64,000 nt of DNA from Moniliella sp. 'wahieum' (lineage: Eukaryota): NCBI GenBank assembly GCA_003971905.1, contig RSEE01000060.1:248001-312000 (forward strand), read 5' to 3'. Both the position numbers and the translations under genes were made by a program. How positions within the stretch are numbered: position 1 is the stretch's first letter; every line of letters starts with the position of its first letter. The notes beneath the pieces were generated by a model, which saw only the letters and a list, made by a program, of their open reading frames with translations, did not search any database and was not told the DNA's origin. This document shows, one piece after another, positions 944 to 60,424 of the stretch.

Positions 944-3900
944 GTCTGGGCCTACGCAGTAGATGGGATGGGTAGGACACTTGGGTGCCATATCGCACTC
1001 TACCGTCCTGCCCCAGCAAAACGTCAAGGGTGGTCTGTGCAATGCAGGCAATGAAAGGATGCTCCCCGGGCGTCCCAAAAAAAGACGCATTCTCTTCGTC
1101 ACTATCATACATGCGCACCCCCCACTCCAGCTCTGTAACATGTAAGCCCTACTGCAGTATTTTGTAGTTGGCTACGATCGAGATCCACACAAGGGCCCAC
1201 GATTCTCTTGTGGAATCGCTCTGTCTCTCGCACCAATTCTCAGCGAAAAAAGTTAAAGAAGGATCTGGCCTGCCCATTGGCCCCCAAGGCGGTTCTAATT
1301 CACTGAGCTTATCTTCGACCTCTCCATCCGTCCAAGGACATAGACTGATGCTCGCGTCTCGAAGAATTTAACTTTGACATGGGACAACTCCTGGCTCCAT
1401 CGGTCGAGAAAAGAGTTTGTCCAAGTTCTGTTGACGGTGTTCTTGAACCCGATCTGGTCCAGCATGCATCGTCGCATTTTCGAGTTGGCGGTACGTTGTG
1501 TGCACATACCGCGGATATGACCTTAAGATTGAAGCTTGACGTCTGTTGCTTGCAGTCAGAGATATTGACTTTGGGTCATTTCAGCCCGTGGTTTTGGATG
1601 CATCGAGCCAGGAGGACTGGGTGCGCCAGGCTTCGTCATGGACAGCAAAGGTTTGGGGGGGGGTATAGGGACTAACACGCAAGCTGTCGTACCCATGGTG
1701 TCTCATCGGAAAGTCGTGAACCTCCTTCTGGCTGCAGCAATTTATGAGGAAATGTTCGGGGGCATGCACAGCCAGACTCACCTCCACCAGGGGCAGGGAA
1801 TCAGGATCCCGGGACAACCAGGTTGAGATCGGCGAGGATGTTGATGAGCTGCCACTGAGAGGAAGACCTCACTGGCACAACGAGCCACGCATCCGGAAAG
1901 GGCACCCAAGAGACGAAAACAATGACGCGTGGGCGGAGATCCAAACGTTGATTGACGATGAACCCCGCCCGTGTCATGGAGAAGTGCCGTGCAGAGAGCA
2001 GTGGTATACCAAAACGGTGGAATGGGTCAACGGAATTTCTGCTCTTCTTCACTTTTCTCCTCCTTCAGCAGCTATTTCAGGACTCTCACCAACCCCCCCC
2101 TCTGCCCTACTACGAAAACACACTGTAAGATGATCGCGAAGCCCCATTGCTTTGGAGGAGAACGTGGCCACACGAAAGATGTAGATATGTGGTCCTGTCT
2201 GCTGAAGGGGCATCGCATTTCAAGCGGAACGTTTAGGCTGCGATGGCGAAAGTTGATGTGGCCGCAGGTCAGAATGGACACCCTAATAACCCACCAAAAA
2301 TATAAGCGGTTGTGCCTGTCATAGTTTGGCTGATCTCGCTCCCATTTCCAATTTCTTCGTCTCGAGCGTCTCGCTCCTTCCTGTCCTTCCACTTCGCACC
2401 ATGTCCTCTGTTCTTGCTTCTTCCCCACGAACGATTGCTACACCCCTTGGCCTAGTCCGATCCTGGTCTCTCTCGCCTTAGCCCCGACTGTGACAGTGCC
2501 CCACACATGGAAACAGAACGAGTTGATCTTTGGGCGATCCTTCCCCAACGGAAGCAGACAAAACAACACGAACAGCTTAACCTTTTGGCAGAGCGGCTTG
2601 GAACAAGTTGAGCAGCACTGTGGGCATGTGGACCGTGCCCTCGCTCCAGCCGACCGGGCACAACACATTGCCCGGCCGCAGTCCGCTTGGGATGGTGCTG
2701 CGTATTGCGCTACAGACGCCCCATCGCGGCCACGCAACTGCCCTCGTGCCCCATCTCGCCCCACCCGTCGGTTATAGTCGTACAGCCGATCCTGCTCGAT
2801 CGTCGGCAATCTCGTTGGGACGCCGCTGGGCAGCCGCCTCGCTGCCCCCCGTCCCATCGCTATCGCCATCTCCATCGCCATCCCACCATCGCCATCCCCA
2901 CCATCGCCATCCCCACCATCCTAGCCCAAGCCCTACCGTCCCATCGCTATCTCACCAGCCCACCATGCCCCCATCCTACCGCCCGTCGACCTCCTCAATG
3001 ACGATCTCGTCAGCTATCTTGGCACCATAGTCGACCCCGATGATCCGCCGCCGCGTGAGGAAATTGACCCGATTGCTGTCGCCGGCAATGTCCTCGGTGC
3101 CGCCGACGAGGAGGAGACATCGATCACATCGAAGCGGTTGGCACCTCGCTCAAGAGGAACCTTGTCGGCGTAGTCAGGCCCAGGTCGAAGCAGACATAAA
3201 CTTCTGATGGACTCCTCGGAGCCAGACGTGAAGAAGAAAAGAAGACCCAGCGGATCATTGAGCACGCCAACCCGGGCCAGTGGAGGAGAAGATGCGCATG
3301 GTTCTGGGCCAAGTCAATCAATCCCACATCCCCCCCCGAGTGGGGCTCGGCGCGCTTTGACACCCGGCCGGCGCCCGACCAGCTGCCCCTGTGTGCGTTC
3401 CCAGTTGGGGAGTGGTGCGACCAAGACAAGCTGTACGCTATCAAGAACGCATTCTTACGAAGGGGCCAGAACCGAGACACTCACCGTTCTATTCCGAACG
3501 GCTCCTTGAGGACAAGGACATGGGAGCCGTGATTGCGTCGTTGATGCTTCCCGCCCCACGAGGCCAACCGCCTCGGGCACGAGTTATCACCGCACCAAGC
3601 CTTTTTTTTCCCTGTGGCAATTGTCAATGACATCCGTCTACCGGCGGACCCTGAGTCCCGTGAGTCCAGTTTTCATTCTTTTCCGAGCTCGCACCTTCTT
3701 TGTGTTGGATGAGTCCGTCGCAGAAGTTCCTTAGTCCAATACGACGTTTCAGGGCTCACATTCTATGGTAGTAGCGAGGCCGACAGGCAACGAGGGCGTT
3801 GGGAGTACCAGCATAATATGAAAACTACTGTTAGAGTGGGAATTGGGAGCACTCGCGATCCTATGGATCAGCTGCAAAGCAGTCTTCAGACAAGACGTGA

Positions 3901-9900: not shown

Positions 9901-11338
9901 CCTCAAGTGTAAAAATAATTAAACACTTCTGGCATTCCTTTCAGCAGTGTTGCCTTTAAAATGATGCTAAAGGGTTCTGGTTCCAAACAGCGAAGGGGGC
10001 TTCCCATTCGGAGAGTAATACCCTTTTTGGCCAGCTGTGTGCCCCTCTCCCTCACCTTGTCATCTCGGGCTTTTCTCTTTGTTGAGTGAGACGCCACCTG
10101 CGGCCCAGCCCATTCCGCCTCCGGTTTATTCCGGAGTAGATCTTCCCGAGACCTCTGCCCCCAGTAATTCATTTCCTTAGTCCACCATCTCCCTCCTCAC
10201 CGGTAGCAGACCGCTGGGCAGATCTCCTCCGACACTCTTTTCAGACGAGGTCCTCCATGGGTTGGCTGCCAGTCAGGGAGCTCGCCCACTCAGGACAGAT
10301 TATGAGGTATCAACTCACATCAAGAGGACCTTTGGAGGCGGACTCCGGGGGAATTGAGGTACTTGTTTGCTTGGGGCTGAGGGTGAACCCGAAAAGGGCT
10401 CTGAAGGAGGTGAGGTTTTCCACAAAAATCATTAGCAGAAGTGCATGTCTGTGCAACAAGGCAGCATAGACACTGGTGTGTGGTTTCGGTAGTAGTATCA
10501 AGGGCTATCCAAATTCCAGCCGGGAAGAAAGGCAGAGGGAACTCTATTTATCTGAGATGTGTGCTGGGATTGGAGCAGGAGCTGTGTCGGGGATTGATAG
10601 TGAACTCTCAGTGGATCGAGCGCTGGAAGACTGGAAGCAGAGAAATCGCTGGATATTATGTCACAAGGCCCATAGCAGCCGCCATTATTATTTCCGTTCC
10701 AGGCGCTACCTCTTTTATCGCAAAATCCTGTATTCTATCTGGTGTCCCCTTGCGCAGGAACGCAAAATGGGATCTGCCTTCAGCCATATATAGTCTCTCA
10801 ACAGACCACTGCGGCTTGAATACATTCTGATTGTTACATTGCAGGGGGTCGCCTGTATGAAGAGACCCAGACCAACGCTATACTATAAGATGCATTTTGG
10901 AGACAGACGACCACCAACGTTTGTTTCCATCCTCACCTCTCAATACCAGCTTCGCCATGACTCAACCATGACTCAACTGAGGGAGACTACAGCTCATCAG
11001 CTGCAGAGGTTCCCCGCACTTTTAACGTACCAAGCTCTCCCTTCAGGCCCACGCCTTTGGTCCCCTTACTCACGGCGAACCGGAGGGGCTTGCCTCTCAT
11101 CCCGGACCCAGCAGTCAAGGATATCACCGCATGGCAGGCCACACCATTACGGAATGTACCTAACAGAAGGGAAGAGGTTGTCATTTCAATATCGACTGAT
11201 GAATGCAGACCGGGGGATCTCACACGTACTCGGGAATACAGGCAAGGCTTGAAAGGGACACAATGCAAATGATAGATGATGATGAAGAAAACGGGTTATA
11301 AAGTGATCAGGGCGGGGATCTGTCGACGGAGTGGGAGA

Positions 11339-11498
11339 TGTCGGCCTCGCTACTACCACAGAATGTGAGCACTGAACGTCGTATTGGACTAAGAAGCTTC
11401 TGCGACTGACTCGTCCAGAAGACTGGTGCGAGCTCGGAAGGAATGAAAGCTGACTCACGTGACTCAGGGTCCGCGCGGTCCTAGGACGGATGTCAACA
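11339..11498 (-). repeat. 3' LTR of the copia element (160 bp)
   Basis: Plus-strand TGTCGGCCTC...GGATGTCAACA matches 16233-16392 base for base on manual comparison. It is preceded on the element strand by a short purine tract AGCGGGGG (11506-11499, putative PPT). Confidence 0.97.
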
Positions 11499-14400
11499 CC
11501 CCCGCTGACCGGAGGGCCCAGTCATGTGGACTGGATCCATCTCCTCGACGCGGAGTTGAGCAAGATGGCTTGTCAGGGCGGGACGGCCGAGAGGCTTGGT
11601 GAGGACGTCCGCTGGGTTCCTTTCGCCGGGGATGTGTACAAGTATGGCCTCGCCCGAGTCCACGTGTTGCCGTACATTGTGGTACCGGATCTTCAGCTCT
11701 CGGAGCTTGCCGGTGCTGCCAAATTTGTGGGCGAGATCGACGACAGACTTATTGTCGCAATACCAATGAATGGGTGTACCCTCGCCGATGGCCCCAAGCT
11801 CGATCATGATGTTCTTGACATAGTTGGCGTCAACCAGTCCATCATATCCTGCCGTATATTCGGCGGCGGCGGTACTGGTAACGCTCTTCGGCTGAAGAAT
11901 GGATCGCCACGACACCGGCACACCGTACACCATCAGTAGGCATCCAGATGTGGAGCGTGCCTGGATGGGATCTCCCGCCAAGTCGGAATCTGTATACAGC
12001 GCAATGGCCGGTGCATCTGATGTTGGGGTCAACCTCAGGCCCTTTCCTCGAGTATGGTACAGGTAGCGAAGGAAGTCATCGACTGCTTGATGATGCTGCT
12101 GCGATGGGTCGGCAGCGGCTCTGCTGAGGGCCGTGATAGCGAAGAGGGAGTCAGGCCGGCCCATTCGTGCAGCCCACAGTCCCGATCCGATCTTCCCCTG
12201 ATATGCCTTGCGCAAGGCTGGGAGGGATGGGGGTTCAGGGTCGGCACGGGGCGGTATCATCCGTACGGGATGTGGGAGAGTCCGGATCCACGGGGCTTTG
12301 ATGTGGTGCTTTGCCACCACTTCCTCGATGAACTTTGGTTGGCTCAGGTACAGCCCCACCGATCCGATCGTATTGGCATCCCAGGTGGTAGTGAAGGGGA
12401 CCGTTACCACGAACATCAATGTGTGTGTTTATCTCGGCCATAAACTCCTCGTACTTTTGGTGTGACTTGCATGCGAGGAGCAGATCGTCGGTGTGGACCG
12501 CCAGGAGGATCTGCTCACCCGGTGGTGCAGCGCGCACGAACAAGCAGGGCTCGGTCAAGCTTTGCGTGAAGCCGAGCTTGTCACGCAGCAGGTTCCGGAT
12601 GTATCGTGCCCAGTTTGCTCCGCTCTGATGTAGCCCGTATAGACTCTTCTTGAGACGCCACACGCGACCACCCGCTTCGGGGAAGTAGGGGGGTGGGCGG
12701 ATGTAGACTGCTTCTTCGAGGGGGGCGTTCAGGTACGCTGCATTGACGTCCGCCGAGAAGAGGCCAAACTTATACTTCTCGGCCAGCACGACGAGGGTCA
12801 GGATGGCAGGTGTGCGCACCGATGGTGCGAACGTCTGGCCCCAAGTCTCGGCCGATTGTTGGTGTCCGCCCGCGACAAAGCGCGCGCGGTGGCGCAGGAA
12901 CCGGCCCTCGGCGTCCGTCTTTGTGGTGATGCGCCATAGTCCTATGAGGATTTGTGCACCCGGTGGTGGGTACGTAGCCTCGTAGGTGCCGTATCGCGCG
13001 AGTGTGGCCACCTCGTCGGCCATAGCCTGCTTGACCATGGCAAAGGAGGGGTGAGTCTCGAGACCCTTGAGCGTCTTGGGAGCGAGGGGTACGCCATCCT
13101 TGGTGAGCTGAACCGTGTCCGGGTGGATGGGTGCGCTGAGAGCAGTCATGGCGGCGTATTCGGGAGGTTGAACTGTGTCGGCAAACGGGGGGGCGGATGT
13201 GTCAGGTAGGGGGCGGGCGATGCCGATCTCTGGTGCGGCGCAGTGGGGCGTGGCGGCTGCAGCACGAGCATGGTAGTCGTGTGGTGGGGTCGTCAGCGAT
13301 TGGGAGTGTGTGCAGGTCGAGGGAGGTGCGGGTGGTGCGCTGGCGGAGGGGGGTAGCGGCGCGGAGGGGGGGTGGTGGTGGGAGCGGGTGTCTGGGGTGT
13401 GGCGGCGGTTCGGGGCATGGGTGCTGCCGCGGCTGGCGGAGTAGGGTTAGCGTCTTTTTCACTGTCGATTTTAATTTGAGGTGATTTGGAGATGTCGGGT
13501 GGGAAGTGGTCGGGGTGGGATGGGGGTAGATGGCGTTGCCCCATTTGTACGGTTTCGACCAGCGGTAGGTGAAGGTACCCAGGGATGGTTGGTATGTGGC
13601 GAAGAGCCATCCCTTTGATCCGCGCTGATGGTGGTATCCTACCAGCATACCTTCCTCTGCCCGCGCGCTGAGCTTGTGCTCGCGGCGTGACTCGGGCAGA
13701 TGGAGGTATGCAACGCGGCCAAAGGGTTGCATCGGTAACGAGTATGCGTGGCCTTTGTATCGCTCAAATCGCGATTTGTTGTCTTCCCCGGATGTTTTGA
13801 GTGGCATTTGGTTTTGGGTGAAGCACGCAGCGTGGAGGCTGTGTTCCCACCAGTCCGACGTCGGAAGACCTGTACCCAAGAGCAACTGCCTTGCACGAGT
13901 CGTTATGGTTCGGATGGCACGCTCAGCCACACCGTTGCTAGCACTCTGCCCCGGGATTGTCCGTTCTGACGTGATGCCTTGCTCGTCCAGAAAAGGTTGC
14001 AGTGCGCTTGTCAATTCGGGGGCGTTGTCCGTGCGCAAAGTCCGCAGCAGTCTGTCCGGGCCGTAGCGTTGCTCCCGCAATATGAGGTTCCGCAGTTCCT
14101 TCGTTGCAGCGCCCTTTGTCGGGATCGCTGTGGTGAAGACGTACCGCGTGAAGTCATCAACGGCGACGAGGGCGTATCCGTGCCCCATGCCGGTTACCCG
14201 GGGGAGGTCTACTACGTCGACGTGGAGGACCTCGAAAGGTCTTTTGGATCGGAGGCGGTCCCGGCTCGGATGGGGCGATGCTGTCGCTAGTGCCACCGCG
14301 CATGTTGGGCAATCCCACTCTGAACGACAGAGGGAGATATGCTTGGCTGTGACGCGGAGGCCTGCGGTTTCCGATCGTGTAAGCCAGGGGAGGAGGTCGA

Positions 14401-14932
14401 TGGCTGCGTGGTTCCAGCGTTTGTGGGCTTTAGAGACGTGGTCCAGGGCCAGGGATGCTGCGAGGGAGTTTGGGGTTGAGGGTGGGTCGGCCGGTTTGAT
14501 CGGTTTGGTCGCCATGGCCCGCAGGGGTGTGGGTGGCGTTCGCGGGTTGTGTAAGATCGTGAATTGATAGTCACTGCCGGTTACTTTTCGTAGGGTGGAT
14601 CCTGGGTTACCAAGCCAGATACCCTTCTGGTGTGGGGCGAAGTATGATGCGATTCCGGTGTTCGACAGGTGTGCTACACTGACGAGATTTCGGCTGAAAC
14701 GGGGCATGTATAGGCTGTTGGGGAGTTTTATCTCCATTTGGTGTCCTCCTAAGCATCGGATACGGATTGTGGCCGTGCCTCGTCCTTCCGCCTTTACATG
14801 TGTCCCGTTAGCAACCTCTATCTCGTCGTCGCAAGGGGTCATGGATGTGAAGACGGATTTGTCTTTCCAAATGGATGGGAATGCCCCACTGTCATATAAT
14901 GCCCGGATGATTCGCATTTCGCCCCCGAGTTC
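11493..14932 (-). CDS. pol: Copia Pol: aspartic protease, integrase, reverse transcriptase, RNase H (several apparent frameshifts)
   Basis: PR LYDSGA; IN HKRWNH...CPTC, LHVDVVD, RTDNAPEL, NGVAERAIRT; RT DVNAAYLNA, LKKSLYGLHQSG, VHTDDLL; RH YTDSDLAGD...RSTSG...AAAEY...CDNKS...NPADVLTKPL. The stop lies inside the 3' LTR. Confidence 0.95.
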
Positions 14933-16178
14933 CTAGTAGTCAGCTGTGCCCGCATCAACGTCAATCACTTCAGACTCGGGAGAGCTCGCTCTCTGAGCGA
15001 CGTGAGCGTTGGCTCGGCCTGGGTTGCGCGGAGGGACAACAGGTTTATTAGACGTCGCGCTGCGCCAGGGTTGGTTGGTGCGGTCTTGCCCCTTGGTCTT
15101 TGTGTCCGCGAGGTTGTCGTCGCCGGCTTTGCCCCCGCTGGAGTTTTTTCCCCCGCTGGTGGGTCGTCCCCCGCTGTCGGGTCGAGTCCAAGGCGTTCCT
15201 CCGTTGACCGGCTTGCCTCCGTTTCTCTTCCTTTCTCCACCGGGATACGTGGCGGCTGGTATGTCCATCACGGCCTGCCGTAACTTGTCTAGACTCGAGC
15301 GCTCTTCACGCTGGCGAATGCTCATGTCGCGTAAGCCGAGTAGGATCCCAGTGCGTTCCTGCTCTTCCGTAAGTGGGATGCCCGCTCGCGTCAGGCTTGC
15401 ACTGATCTCTTCCATGTAGTCGAGGTAGTCTCGACCCGATCGGTTTCCTTGGTCGGCCGAAAAGTAGCGAATGAGTAGAGGCCCTCTGTTTGCGGTAGGC
15501 GTATATCCATACCGCTGACGCAGCATGTTCAGCGTGTCCTGGGTGCATGATTTCGTGGTGGGTGCGGATCGTCCGGAAGAGGGTTGACGGCATGGCTTCC
15601 CTAAGAAGGTTGTGCAAGCGTCTGTCGAGGTCCTCGGTGAAGTAGCGGGAGCTGCGACCATTCTGGACGACGTCGCTTGCGTGGGGGTGGGCATCTGTTA
15701 TCGCGAAGAGAAATTCGTCTTCCCAAGCGCTGTAGGCGGACGGGTCTTTGTTCAGATCAGGCCACTTGATATTCTTGGTGGGAGACTCGCGTAGTGATCT
15801 GTAAAGGTCGTACTCGGGTCGCGAGGCTGCGCCTGTAGGTGCCCCCAAAGTTGCGTTGGGTTGAGTTTCCATTTGGTGGATGTTTTGCACCACAAAATTC
15901 GTAGCCCGTCGAACCCAGTTTGTCGTGATAGACGTAGGTTCGTCCTTCCATCCAAGCCACTCGGCTCTGTCGTGTATAGCTCTGTTGATCTTCTCTTTAA
16001 CGACATCGATGTCGTTCGTCTTCTTGAACCACAGGTGCGCTTCGGCGCAAAGCATCATGAGTTCCTCGTTGTCGGTGCCAATCGGTGGCGGATCGCGACC
16101 GGTTGGTGTCCAGTAATCGCGCTTGTTCACCATTGTGGTGTCGCTGACCGAGAGATCGGTGTTAGCGTTGGCGCCCAT
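14933..16178 (-). CDS. gag: Copia Gag (one apparent frameshift near 15540)
   Basis: ATG 16178 (MGANANTDLS...) just inside the 5' LTR. Capsid-like segments AYSAWEDEFLFAI and LNMLRQRYG...DYLDYMEEISASLTRAGIPLTEEQ...ILLGL. Ends at TAG 14935-14933. Confidence 0.85.
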
Positions 16179-16232
16179 GGTTGTGGGTGTAGTTTTGGCC
16201 AGCTCAGGGATGAGCAGATAAGGATGTAACTC

Positions 16233-16392
16233 TGTCGGCCTCGCTACTACCACAGAATGTGAGCACTGAACGTCGTATTGGACTAAGAAGCTTCTGCGAC
16301 TGACTCGTCCAGAAGACTGGTGCGAGCTCGGAAGGAATGAAAGCTGACTCACGTGACTCAGGGTCCGCGCGGTCCTAGGACGGATGTCAACA
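16233..16392 (-). repeat. 5' LTR of the copia element (160 bp)
   Basis: Identical to 11339-11498 and flanked by the GGAGA target-site duplication. Confidence 0.97.
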
Positions 16393-19300
16393 GGAGATGC
16401 TCTCCTCTGCAAACGGACAAGTTGTCCTACACATCTTCGATCGGAATAGTTTTAATGGGAAGAAAAGAACAGGCAGTGTGCAAGATGCGACTGTCTTCGC
16501 CAGGGATCGGCCAGAGCGACAGAGCCCTAGAGCCGATTTGTGCGGTGTAGCCTGTAACATTGATGCCGTAAGGAAATTGTGGCTCACTGCCATTTCATGC
16601 GAGAAGATACATACTACCGAGAATTTATCCCTTTTTGTACGAGCGTGTGCTGGCCGGTGACGAGTCCTGCAGACTCTTTTGGTGTCCAGGCATCTCGAAA
16701 AGGAGATCTTATTAGACCAACACCCTCAGTCATTGATGGAAAGAACTAGAACAAGTATATGCGAAGGAGACTATCCAAGAGGGGGGTGCAATGACTAATG
16801 ACTTTTGACATCCCTATTAATACCCCAAGAGGAAGGGGGGAGGGCGTTCCAGGCAATGACTTTGAGCCCCAGGCGTGGGCGGGGCCGACAAGGGCGTGGC
16901 CCCGACGGTAGTACACGCTCACCAATTGTCTGAAGAATCACTTTCTTTTTCTATTGTGCCCCGCTTGATGTATATCTCTATTCCCTTCGTCTCATCCCCA
17001 TGTCTGCGCCCTTTCTATCCTCTTCGTTGTTGCTGTCCACCCTATTTTTCCTCGTATCTCCACTGCAATCGAGTCCTCCTTTAGTCCACACTCCTTTTAA
17101 GCGTTCCTTAGCATGGCCACCTTTCGATCAGTTCGCTTTTGCCCTCCTAGTCCATAGGGTGAACCTCCCGACTTCAGATCCGGACCCTAACGTGTACCCT
17201 ATCCGTCAGATGCTGCCAGTCTCTGCTTGACGACCGGGAAGTCCATTTGCCACCTGGAAGGTTTAGATTTCTCGATCGCTCGTTTCTATCCCCTGTAGGC
17301 CGACTCCGAGGGGTATTAGGGAAGATGACTCCGACAGGGAAGTCAGTAACTCCGGTCACAGTACCCACTGATCCTTTAGTCAACGAAGGAGTGACGGATC
17401 ACACACACATTCCCACAGGATGTGGGTATGATCCTTGTTCTAGATCTTCCTTGCCCCCTTTTGTGTCTCTTTCCCCACATCACGCGTGGTCTACCGTGTG
17501 ATAGCTTCTCCTTCTCCTCTGGTATATAAGGCACCATTCCATGCAGCCTGAATGAATACCTGTCGGCATCCGAAGCAATCTCCCTCCTACAAGGAGGGAG
17601 AAATGGTGCGGGTGTGTATCGTGAACTCATATGTCTAGAAACCCAACGTACTTTTTGGGTAGAGGCTCATCCTCATCTGTGATTATAAAAGGTGTGGACC
17701 CACATCGTGTGGGGTAGAGCATGATGCCATGGGGACAGCGTGTTGGCAAAGTCCGTTTACCACCGTTGATGTCCAACTCCTCTCCATCAGAACTTTGTAG
17801 TAGTGTCGAGAGCACTGCGTCGCCTTTCGAACGCCAAGAGAAGGAACTGCTTCGGCTGCTGGAACAAGCAGAGAATGCGACAAGAACGCCAAGTACCACA
17901 GGGACGCACTCAAGAGCCGTTTCCCCCCTGGTTTTGACGACGCGAGGACCTTAACCCTGGTGGCGCTTCTACAAGCAACCCCACAACATGATTAACGGTT
18001 CGGTTTAGACGTAGCGTTCCCCCTGTCCAGCCTTAAGCTCTGTCAATGAAATGGATTCAGAAGAAGGGTGTGGTCCGTCCCCCCTTTTGCTGGTGCCTAA
18101 CCATTGCGCGCTCCCAAATTATTGATTGTGAAGAAACTTGCTTTCATCACTTGTTGTGAGCGGAAGACACGTTCTCGGCTAGCAGTCTGTGCATCTTATG
18201 CTCACTACTAATAACTTCAGTATCTACGGCCATTTTTTTTCCCTTTTGAGACGTGCTTTCATAATTAAAGACTTGTGGCTCATTCGTTTGCCTCCGCACC
18301 CTGGGCGGCTGGCCCCCGTTGCACACTTTTCCCGTAGGACTTCCAAGTATTTCCGAGTCGCACTGTAGCCCCTTAAAGAGGTTAAAGTAGGGTACATTTT
18401 CCATTATCTATAGCGAGAAAGCATAACGCTTCTGCTGAGAAAATGTCCTGTGAACTAAAGCGAGAGAACACCCCCTCATATGAAAACTGTCACCTTGCCC
18501 GGAAGTTTATTTTTGCTTCATCACCATTGTTTCGTGCCCTCTGATGTTCATTATCCCCTAACGCGTAACGCCCCCCCCACCCCACCCCTATGTGGGAAAG
18601 AAGGGCGAGAGAACACTCTTCTTGGCATCCAAAAATCCGGTATCCTATCCTAGGCGGCCCTTCGGTGGCTGATATACCCGCGATATACCCTCTTCTTTCT
18701 GCACCCCCATCAAAAGCACCAGTCCCGCTTCCATGACCATTTGCCCACAGTATGCGCGTACACAATAAAGGGCCGGGGAAAAAACGATACGCTTGTGGGT
18801 TGAAACGTCGGGGGCACGCCCATTCATCAGGTCATGATATGGCCCAGTCGCTCACGTCGTCCTTTTGGTGGTCCGACGATGTGATGCAGATATAGGCCGA
18901 TCCCATCCCATTCACATCTGTGGGTTATGATAGAGCAGCAGTTTCCTGAGCCATCTTGCACATTTGGGTCAAGACCGCCTTGTCCCACGTTTGGGAGATC
19001 AGAGAGCAACTTGGTCAATACGCGAACCACAGAGCGTCGCGACCATATCCAAGTCCAAGAGCAAGTCCTAGCTAGCTCTGTTAGCCCTGTGTCCGTCACG
19101 GGGGAGCGCTTCCTGATGCCCATCGCCCTAGCCTACCGCTCCGGCAGAAGCGTCAATCGTCGAGGTTAGAGGTGGGCAACGTGGCCCATGCGGAGGGCCA
19201 AGGCGGGCGCATTCTGTCCCCAACTCTGTCTCCAGGTGCAGATGCAGCGGGCGTGGGGGGAGGTGGGCATCCCGACGCTGTGCTGATGGCCCCAAGATTG

Positions 19301-60321: not shown

Positions 60322-60424
60322 GATGAAGTCGATGAAGGCTTTTCACAGATGAAGTCGATGAAGGCTTTCACAGATGAAGTCGATGAAGGCTTTTCACAGA
60401 TGAAGTCGATGAAGGCTTTTCACA
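60322..60424. repeat. 26-bp minisatellite (GATGAAGTCGATGAAGGCTTTTCACA)x4
   Basis: Four head-to-tail copies with no spacers; copy 2 lacks one T. Confidence 0.95.

Follow-up and report, generated by a model that had tools for sequence, protein, structure and literature searches.

How does a retrotransposon make Pol when gag ends in a stop codon and pol continues behind it in the same frame? The question is raised by an element in a 64,000-nt stretch of DNA from Moniliella sp. 'wahieum' (GenBank assembly GCA_003971905.1, contig RSEE01000060.1, positions 248,001 to 312,000), called the window here. An earlier, sequence-only reading had placed the TAG at 14935-14933, with pol in the same frame, the protease catalytic Asp 14 codons on and an AUG at +16. 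It proposed that UAG readthrough, stimulated by a local H-type pseudoknot, sets the Gag:Pol ratio. On re-reading, all of these positions were right, as were the letters and positions of the segments proposed to pair: CUCGGG (+4..+9) with UCCGGG (+26..+31), helix S1, and AAUGC (+15..+19) with GCAUU (+49..+53), helix S2. Numbering starts with the first base after the stop (+1, window 14932).

A copia element with a stop between gag and pol

The element lies on the minus strand of the host contig, from window 16392 to 11339, and is a Ty1/copia LTR retrotransposon. Its features, all on the minus strand, are as follows.

16393..16397: target-site duplication, left copy, 5 bp; the same 5 bases stand at both flanks
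16233..16392: 5' LTR, 160 nt, TG...CA; 100% identity with the 3' LTR
16225..16232: primer-binding site, whose 8 bases pair without mismatch with positions 33-40 of spliced tRNA-Tyr(GUA); pairing extends over about 30 nt, and 0/500 shuffles were as stable
14933..16178: gag, 415 codons when unbroken; one private frame break near 15550 in this copy
14933..14935: in-frame UAG, end of gag; in 57/57 copies of family A, 20/20 of family B and all eight families
14926..14932: 7-nt spacer; G+1, C+6 and G+7 (also G+9 and G+11) invariant in nine stop-bearing sequences
14903..14925: long-range stem, 5' arm, +8..+21 and +26..+30; computed pairing
14634..14658: long-range stem, 3' arm, +275..+299; near the end of the protease domain
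14880..14929: proposed local pseudoknot, S1 +4..+9/+26..+31 and S2 +15..+19/+49..+53; not supported
14891..14893: codon of the protease catalytic Asp, the 14th past the stop; the Pfam Pol_BBD match begins at residue 13, and DSGA is invariant in the alignment
11493..14932: pol, with protease, integrase (about 13946-14245), reverse transcriptase (about 12358-12969) and presumed RNase H
near 13500-13280 and 12355: private frame breaks in pol of this copy, from copy comparison
11499..11506: purine-rich tract adjoining the 3' LTR, seen in the sequence
11339..11498: 3' LTR, 160 nt, from LTR comparison
11334..11338: target-site duplication, right copy, matching the left one

The TG...CA LTR pair, the 5-bp target-site duplication, the primer-binding site and purine tract adjoining the LTRs, the Pfam order of protease, integrase and reverse transcriptase, and the copia-type reverse transcriptase (RVT_2) are all those of Ty1/copia. 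The gag frame matched no Pfam family. Its Atlas look-alikes were copia Gags (0.87-0.90; Ty1 TYA 0.90, Retrotran_gag_2 0.88), taken as a lead only; its position upstream of pol fits copia, and it could be aligned across five families. The reverse transcriptase active-site motif, at about window 12490, reads HTDD; the usual copia form is YVDD. Both LTRs carry two TGAGTCA boxes around a CACGTG (window 16340-16360 for one of them), which include a donor-like GTGAGT and which we take to resemble AP-1/Gcn4 and E-box sites. Elsewhere in the window, 43 nt at 3706-3748 are 91% complementary to the LTR and may be what is left of an old solo LTR in the opposite orientation, and a short tandem repeat with units of about 25 nt occupies 60322-60419. 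The host is fungal by gene content (Zn2Cys6 and Pal1 genes). A host enzyme shares 70-76% identity with its smut and agaric orthologues and lies outside both Tilletia (92-96% within the group) and the Thecaphora/Pseudozyma flocculosa group (87%), which places the host among the basidiomycetes and no more closely.

The element's family, family A, is a young one. A 701-nt query had 40 scored matches in the same genome, 33 of them identical. In six of 32 aligned copies, pol ran open for 1146-1199 codons past the TAG, and in three of the six gag was unbroken as well; the layout of the family is therefore gag-UAG-pol. The frame breaks of the window copy are private, since 26-32 of the 32 aligned copies differ from it at each one, and such scattered private indels look like long-read errors. 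The stop had been held to be no error of that type, and this was borne out: the 71-nt junction was letter-identical in 39/39 other fetched copies (7 of these loci, not delimited end to end, were left out of the difference counts). A genome-wide pattern in which the stop codon was left free found TAG in 57/57 family A copies. It gave 58 matches in total, and the one outside family A was a 2-mismatch match at control level.

The same stop was found in related families of this genome. Family B had TAG in 20/20 copies, and the sister families B, C, D, E/F, F2, G and H all had TAG at the same boundary. These families are 49-80% alike over 270 nt, and 50-66% to family A. Where their frames could be read, the TAG sits 13-16 codons ahead of the protease Asp. 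The UAG was followed by G in nine of nine stop-bearing sequences, and G+1, C+6, G+7, G+9 and G+11 were common to all nine. Both C+6 and G+9 fall at the third position of a codon, and the residue encoded by the codon ending in C+6 varies among Leu, Ser, Tyr, Gly and Cys. Among control columns, the third base was invariant in 0/52 across families A-E and in 7/103 across A-D. In a reverse transcriptase tree, A-F formed one clade (100/99) with the halves A/B/C and D/E/F; F2, G and H were placed with D-F by their junction sequences. The nearest outside proteins in this tree, P0047, P0066 and P0081, are pol-only calls of 1052-1117 aa, and P0047 begins 7 residues ahead of the protease Asp, which hints at a split gag/pol layout beyond this genome.

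The distant copia elements that could be assessed lacked such a stop. Among 80 metagenome loci with 28-51% identity, 38 were assessable (42 were not). In none of the 38 did a long open frame end in a stop 40 codons or less from the protease, and 32 were open for at least 100 codons. An earlier set of alignment-based scans, of metagenome and viral contigs, found no relative, and a second metagenome scan gave only these 80 loci. Contigs of two DNA runs matched three short pol pieces at 99% identity or more, outside the junction, which is thus known at the DNA level from a single, error-prone assembly. One Logan contig protein, known as protein alone, is nearly identical to family B pol. By sequence comparison, we regard the gag/pol UAG as inherited, old and selected, and its role as a programmed stop at the Gag/Pol boundary is supported. 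UAG is not a sense codon in these elements, since no in-frame TAG occurs in the 1146 and 1160 pol codons, in which 38-41 Gln and 36-41 Tyr codons are present.

Family D was the exception to a fixed stop. Copies with a sense codon at this place, which the sequence-only reading had named as evidence against itself, were absent from family A and were found in this sister family. The 30 family D loci (2 unreadable, 2 duplicates) had TAG at 6 places, a sense codon at 3 and an 81-nt in-frame deletion at 17. The deletion takes out the stop and the 5' arm of the hairpin described below, so that the frames fuse directly, as in the sense-codon alleles. We considered whether the deletion was a spliced retrocopy and rejected this, as its ends are not GT-AG and are flanked by imperfect direct repeats. 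The stop-bearing state is likely ancestral in family D because all sister families have TAG. Stop-less copies (20 places) outnumber stop-bearing ones (6), which shows the stop to be dispensable in cis there; these copies may be mobilized in trans. The variants also show a fused frame to be the natural join of gag and pol.

Predicted, conserved pairing downstream of the stop

In family A, the RNA from +8 to +30 was predicted to pair with +275 to +299 (window 14925-14903 with 14634-14658) in an interrupted stem of 19 bp, composed of the helices +8..+15/+292..+299, +16..+21/+281..+286 and +26..+30/+275..+279. Between the stop and the stem lies a 7-nt spacer, and the stem was predicted again in B and C, two families only 59-66% alike. 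In an unbiased duplex scan of +9..+20 against 4 kb around the stop, the best partner was at +281 in both A and B, and the partner at +286 in family C was second best. Long-range pairs with P>0.5 numbered 20 in A, 22 in B and 23 in C, starting at +8, +9 and +8. Four pairs were common to the three families. One of them is compensatory (G-C in A and B, A-U in C); at two further stem pairs only one of the two bases changes, and the register of the upper helices is not the same in all families.

The pairing was compared to several backgrounds. With the protein held fixed and synonymous codons redrawn, z was -3.5 in A, -4.0 in B and -2.6 in C, and 1, 2 and 15 of 2000 draws paired as well. The stem window pair came first of 5151 aligned pairs, with -24.1 in its weakest family versus -18.1 for the best pair listed elsewhere. 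The 311-nt fold of family A had z -5.09 (0/100 shuffles). A separate estimate from 30 shuffles gave this fold z -3.68 in A, the best of 15 element windows (the other 14 ranged from +1.56 to -2.88), -3.44 in C and an unremarkable -1.67 in B. Both arms were kept in all 39 copies. Computed folding and alignment of the sequences together show a conserved potential for long-range pairing in family A and two relatives.

The A/B/C stem was absent in families D-H. Here a local hairpin, from +4/+6..+14 with about +30..+40, was predicted. These hairpins were in the top 0-3% of their own pol windows, with z of only -1.05 to -2.22 against synonymous nulls; these nulls did not include G and H, each of which is a single copy with frame errors. 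The hairpin arms are 7- and 12-nt invariant runs across the five families, among the longest invariant runs. The hairpin starts at +4 to +6, which is inside the usual spacer. Families F, F2 and H also have a second long hairpin after the first, at about +46..+130 past the stop.

Readthrough could be real and the stem could nevertheless serve another function, such as packaging, dimerization or RNA stability, leaving the stop context or a distant element to drive recoding. The D-H subclade keeps the spacer bases in the absence of the long stem, and distant elements were proposed for Tca2, a copia element of Candida albicans, in passages of PMC2194720. We consider this explanation unlikely because the stem starts 7-8 nt past the stop in all three families, the spacing described for known stimulators in part of PMC3159437, and because D-H have another structure at the same place.

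Routes past the stop

Splicing is a serious rival, since TAG/G could be an acceptor and family A has a branch-point-like motif. By this account, the TAG is a 3' splice acceptor (YAG/G), and a minor spliced RNA without the stop encodes Pol or a shortened Gag-Pol. The motif just upstream is GCTGAC in A and TCTGAC in B, and D-H have pyrimidine-rich tracts. If a donor-like LTR site were joined to +1, the spliced RNA would still have the AUG at +16 ahead of the protease Asp, a route that is conceivable for family A alone. B, C, D and F have no AUG before this Asp. The gap from motif to TAG is 3 nt, at which none of 38 host intron candidates (picked by motif, not confirmed introns) fell; their gaps peak at 12 nt (7/38). 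No in-frame donor is conserved: no donor of the types listed is in phase in family B, and the LTR site is the only one in A. An acceptor would also not be expected to show conservation as far as +11, or a stem in the exon. Splicing is disfavored on these grounds and appears improbable.

Pol could also be made apart from Gag, by re-initiation, from an internal promoter or by an in-frame hop over the stop. Re-initiation at the AUG at +16 had been raised as an alternative in the sequence-only reading. It fails as a rule for the clade because the first in-frame Met lies past the catalytic Asp in the other families, at codon 155 (B), 32 (C), 58 (D) and 92 (F), and in family A the AUG is buried in the predicted stem. 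A weak promoter is described at the Tca2 junction in portions of PMC2194720, and a passage of PMC5009743 treats an in-frame hop as conceivable, no natural example being known. We judge separate synthesis of Pol to be highly unlikely.

The H-type pseudoknot that had been proposed as the stimulator did not hold up. Both helices can be drawn (S1 -6.7 kcal/mol, S2 -2.9 kcal/mol), S1 had P 0.95 when 70 nt were folded, and a comparable H-type topology was found in only 2/111 other pol windows. However, its stability is average: about half of 347 pol windows were as stable over the first 42 nt, and the local fold had z +1.07 against synonymous redraws. It also has competitors. The GCAUU arm of S2 is the 5-nt loop of another 5-bp hairpin (P 0.97), and when 363 nt are folded, most of S1 and the 5' arm of S2 find partners about 270 nt downstream, so that the long-range stem outcompetes both. 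Stimulators described in parts of PMC13517186 and PMC3159437 begin after about 8 nt or more, and the start of S1 at +4 therefore counts against it. In relatives, S1 is weaker (5 bp, -3.9, in family B; 6 bp, -4.8, in family C) or absent. Local folds of 45-150 nt showed nothing unusual in A, B or C, and an Rfam scan returned no match at E<=1. As judged from helix energies and competition, there is very little chance that this pseudoknot is the stimulator.

That the stop is an accident, such as a lesion spread by a non-autonomous burst, or that UAG is a sense codon of the host is scarcely credible. Indel errors are frequent in the assembly, and junction variants have spread in family D. Against this stand the same stop at the same boundary in eight families, which counts as a refutation unless host genes prove to have internal TAG codons, and the absence of in-frame TAG from pol, as given above.

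The explanation that we favor, and consider probable, is programmed UAG readthrough stimulated by RNA structure, which would set the ratio of Gag to Gag-Pol. Of the original proposal, the programmed stop stands, conserved in eight families, with readthrough as the likeliest bypass; the stimulator would be a different one. Most ribosomes would stop at the UAG and release Gag. In families A, B and C, the RNA beginning 7-8 nt past the stop would pair about 270 nt downstream, so that much of the protease-coding sequence forms a large loop. While the UAG occupies the A site, the stem would lie at the mRNA entry channel and, together with the G+1/C+6/G+7 spacer, delay termination. A near-cognate tRNA, most likely tRNA-Tyr, could then read the UAG in a few percent of passes to give Gag-Pol, by analogy with murine leukemia virus (MuLV) and alphaviruses. 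Tyr made up 92% of the residues at UAG in one yeast context described in PMC4150775 (in part). In the D-H sister subclade, the short local hairpin would serve at the same place. Against this explanation count the limits of the stem (three families, one clear compensatory pair, register shifts in the upper helices and an unremarkable whole fold in B), the moderate scores and early start of the D-H hairpins, a hexamer, UAG-GAA, outside the listed type III set, the majority of stop-less copies in family D, and the failure of a look-alike signal, that of Tca2, in a yeast reporter (passages of PMC2194720).

Comparison with known systems

The gag-stop-pol layout is already known from Tca2, VdLTRE5 and Tj1. 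Tca2 and VdLTRE5 (Verticillium dahliae) are likewise copia elements with gag and pol in one frame and one stop, and the element here shares with them a single in-frame stop at the Gag/Pol boundary, fixed in its family. VdLTRE5 is described as having no CARYYA motif in the portion of PMC3441728 that deals with it, as is the case here. The stop is UGA in both, in contrast to UAG here. Tca2 has a predicted local pseudoknot, whereas the conserved structure here needs about 300 nt downstream and has cross-family backing. The sequence-only reading had cited Tca2 as a described case of readthrough. Its junction, with 150 nt on each side, gave no readthrough in an S. cerevisiae reporter in the experiments covered by the PMC2194720 excerpt, and how its stop is passed "remains to be determined" according to a passage of PMC7175516. 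The nearest named pol proteins were those of Ustilago copia elements (22-32%), in a comparison that held no named Tca2 sequence.

The fission yeast elements Tj1, Tcry1 and Tosmo1-3 also have a conserved in-frame stop and conserved flanking bases across families, as described in part of 10.1101/2022.12.06.519325, in which the Tj1 stop is reported to be essential (citing Guo 2015). They are self-primed Ty3/gypsy elements with a UGA-CU context, unlike the copia UAG-G here. A distant copia element on metagenome contigs (L234:1757, L229:106) carries UGA-CUAG in frame, 62 codons ahead of the protease Asp and behind a stretch rich in Cys and His; in L234 the frame above it is open for 268 codons. Since UGA-CUAG is a named readthrough motif, this element is a separate readthrough candidate.

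Two viral systems resemble the signal in different respects. The 3' stem-loops of the alphavirus/tobravirus type have a long stem, a 7-12 nt spacer and a loop of at least 100 nt, and were recognized by conservation with compensatory changes (from sections of PMC3159437); the stem predicted here has at least 10 bp, a spacer in this range and a long loop, with one compensatory pair and two one-sided changes among its three families. Loops of 101-154 nt in alphavirus cases and of 268 nt in one Drosophila gene are given in the same sections, and the arms here are about 245 nt apart. Those elements follow UGA-C in RNA viruses, in contrast to UAG-G in a retrotransposon. Moloney MuLV (type III) likewise has UAG-G at the gag/protease boundary, a structure from +8/+9, a G-rich 5' strand and conserved spacer bases. 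It has a compact 50-nt H-type pseudoknot, UAG-GGA and conserved G1 and G5 (excerpted from PMC13517186); in the window element the stop context is UAG-GAA, the invariant spacer bases include C6 and G7, and a pseudoknot is not supported. None of the type III hexamers (UAGGGV, UAGGUA or UAGGAU) matches UAGGAA of the window, with UAGGGA present only in family E, and a compact H-type pseudoknot after an 8-nt spacer is likewise unsupported. The signal is MuLV-like in UAG-G and spacing and alphavirus-like in its long loop, and it fails a defining feature of each.

No match to the 3' end of a tRNA follows the 5' LTR. Instead, the primer site (window 16203-16232) is complementary to the anticodon arm of the intron-free host tRNA-Tyr(GUA), across the splice junction, and the match falls in the 5' half of the spliced tRNA. 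Of 43 genome pattern matches, 30 were the tRNA-Tyr D-arm/anticodon stretch, and ARAGORN named 3/4 fetched ones Tyr; three sites matched by a first tRNA-Tyr pattern had been discarded as non-tRNA. Perfect pairing from the first base covered 8 nt in A, 14/14 in C, 11 in D and 9 in F, and 13/14 bases matched in B; 0/500 shuffles paired as well in any family tested (A, B, C, D, F). The copia lineages Osser, Bryco and Bianca are also primed by tRNA halves, cut in the anticodon arm, to which their primer sites are complementary. They use half tRNA-Met or half tRNA-Ile, according to part of PMC6317226, whereas this clade matches tRNA-Tyr(GUA).

A search for suppressor tRNAs, in which 63 of 2133 candidates were scored, yielded about 40 identical tRNA matches, of which the 23 that were read are tRNA-Ala(AGC) genes; a suppressor tRNA may yet exist among the other candidates. 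These 23 genes are identical, intronless and scattered over the genome, with mostly unrelated flanks. Another tRNA family has identical exons and variable introns, and ARAGORN calls it Leu, Gly or Trp by intron placement.

It may be a coincidence that the primer tRNA is also the likely reader of UAG. A double role for tRNA-Tyr(GUA), in which the intact molecule would read the gag UAG under the long-range stem and its 5' half would prime reverse transcription, is a long shot. If it were true, host tRNA-Tyr splicing, modification or cleavage would, speculatively, set Pol output and cDNA synthesis together.

In the literature searched, which left most subscription papers outside, neither a long-range readthrough stem in a retrotransposon nor a half-tRNA-Tyr primer was found. 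The clade provides a defined cassette, with its partner strand 275-299 nt downstream, beyond the 150 nt of the Tca2 reporter. Behind a single conserved spacer it has two natural structural solutions, and sister family D adds natural alleles that lack the stop. If confirmed, readthrough by a long-range stem would extend from RNA viruses to retrotransposons and to the UAG-G context.
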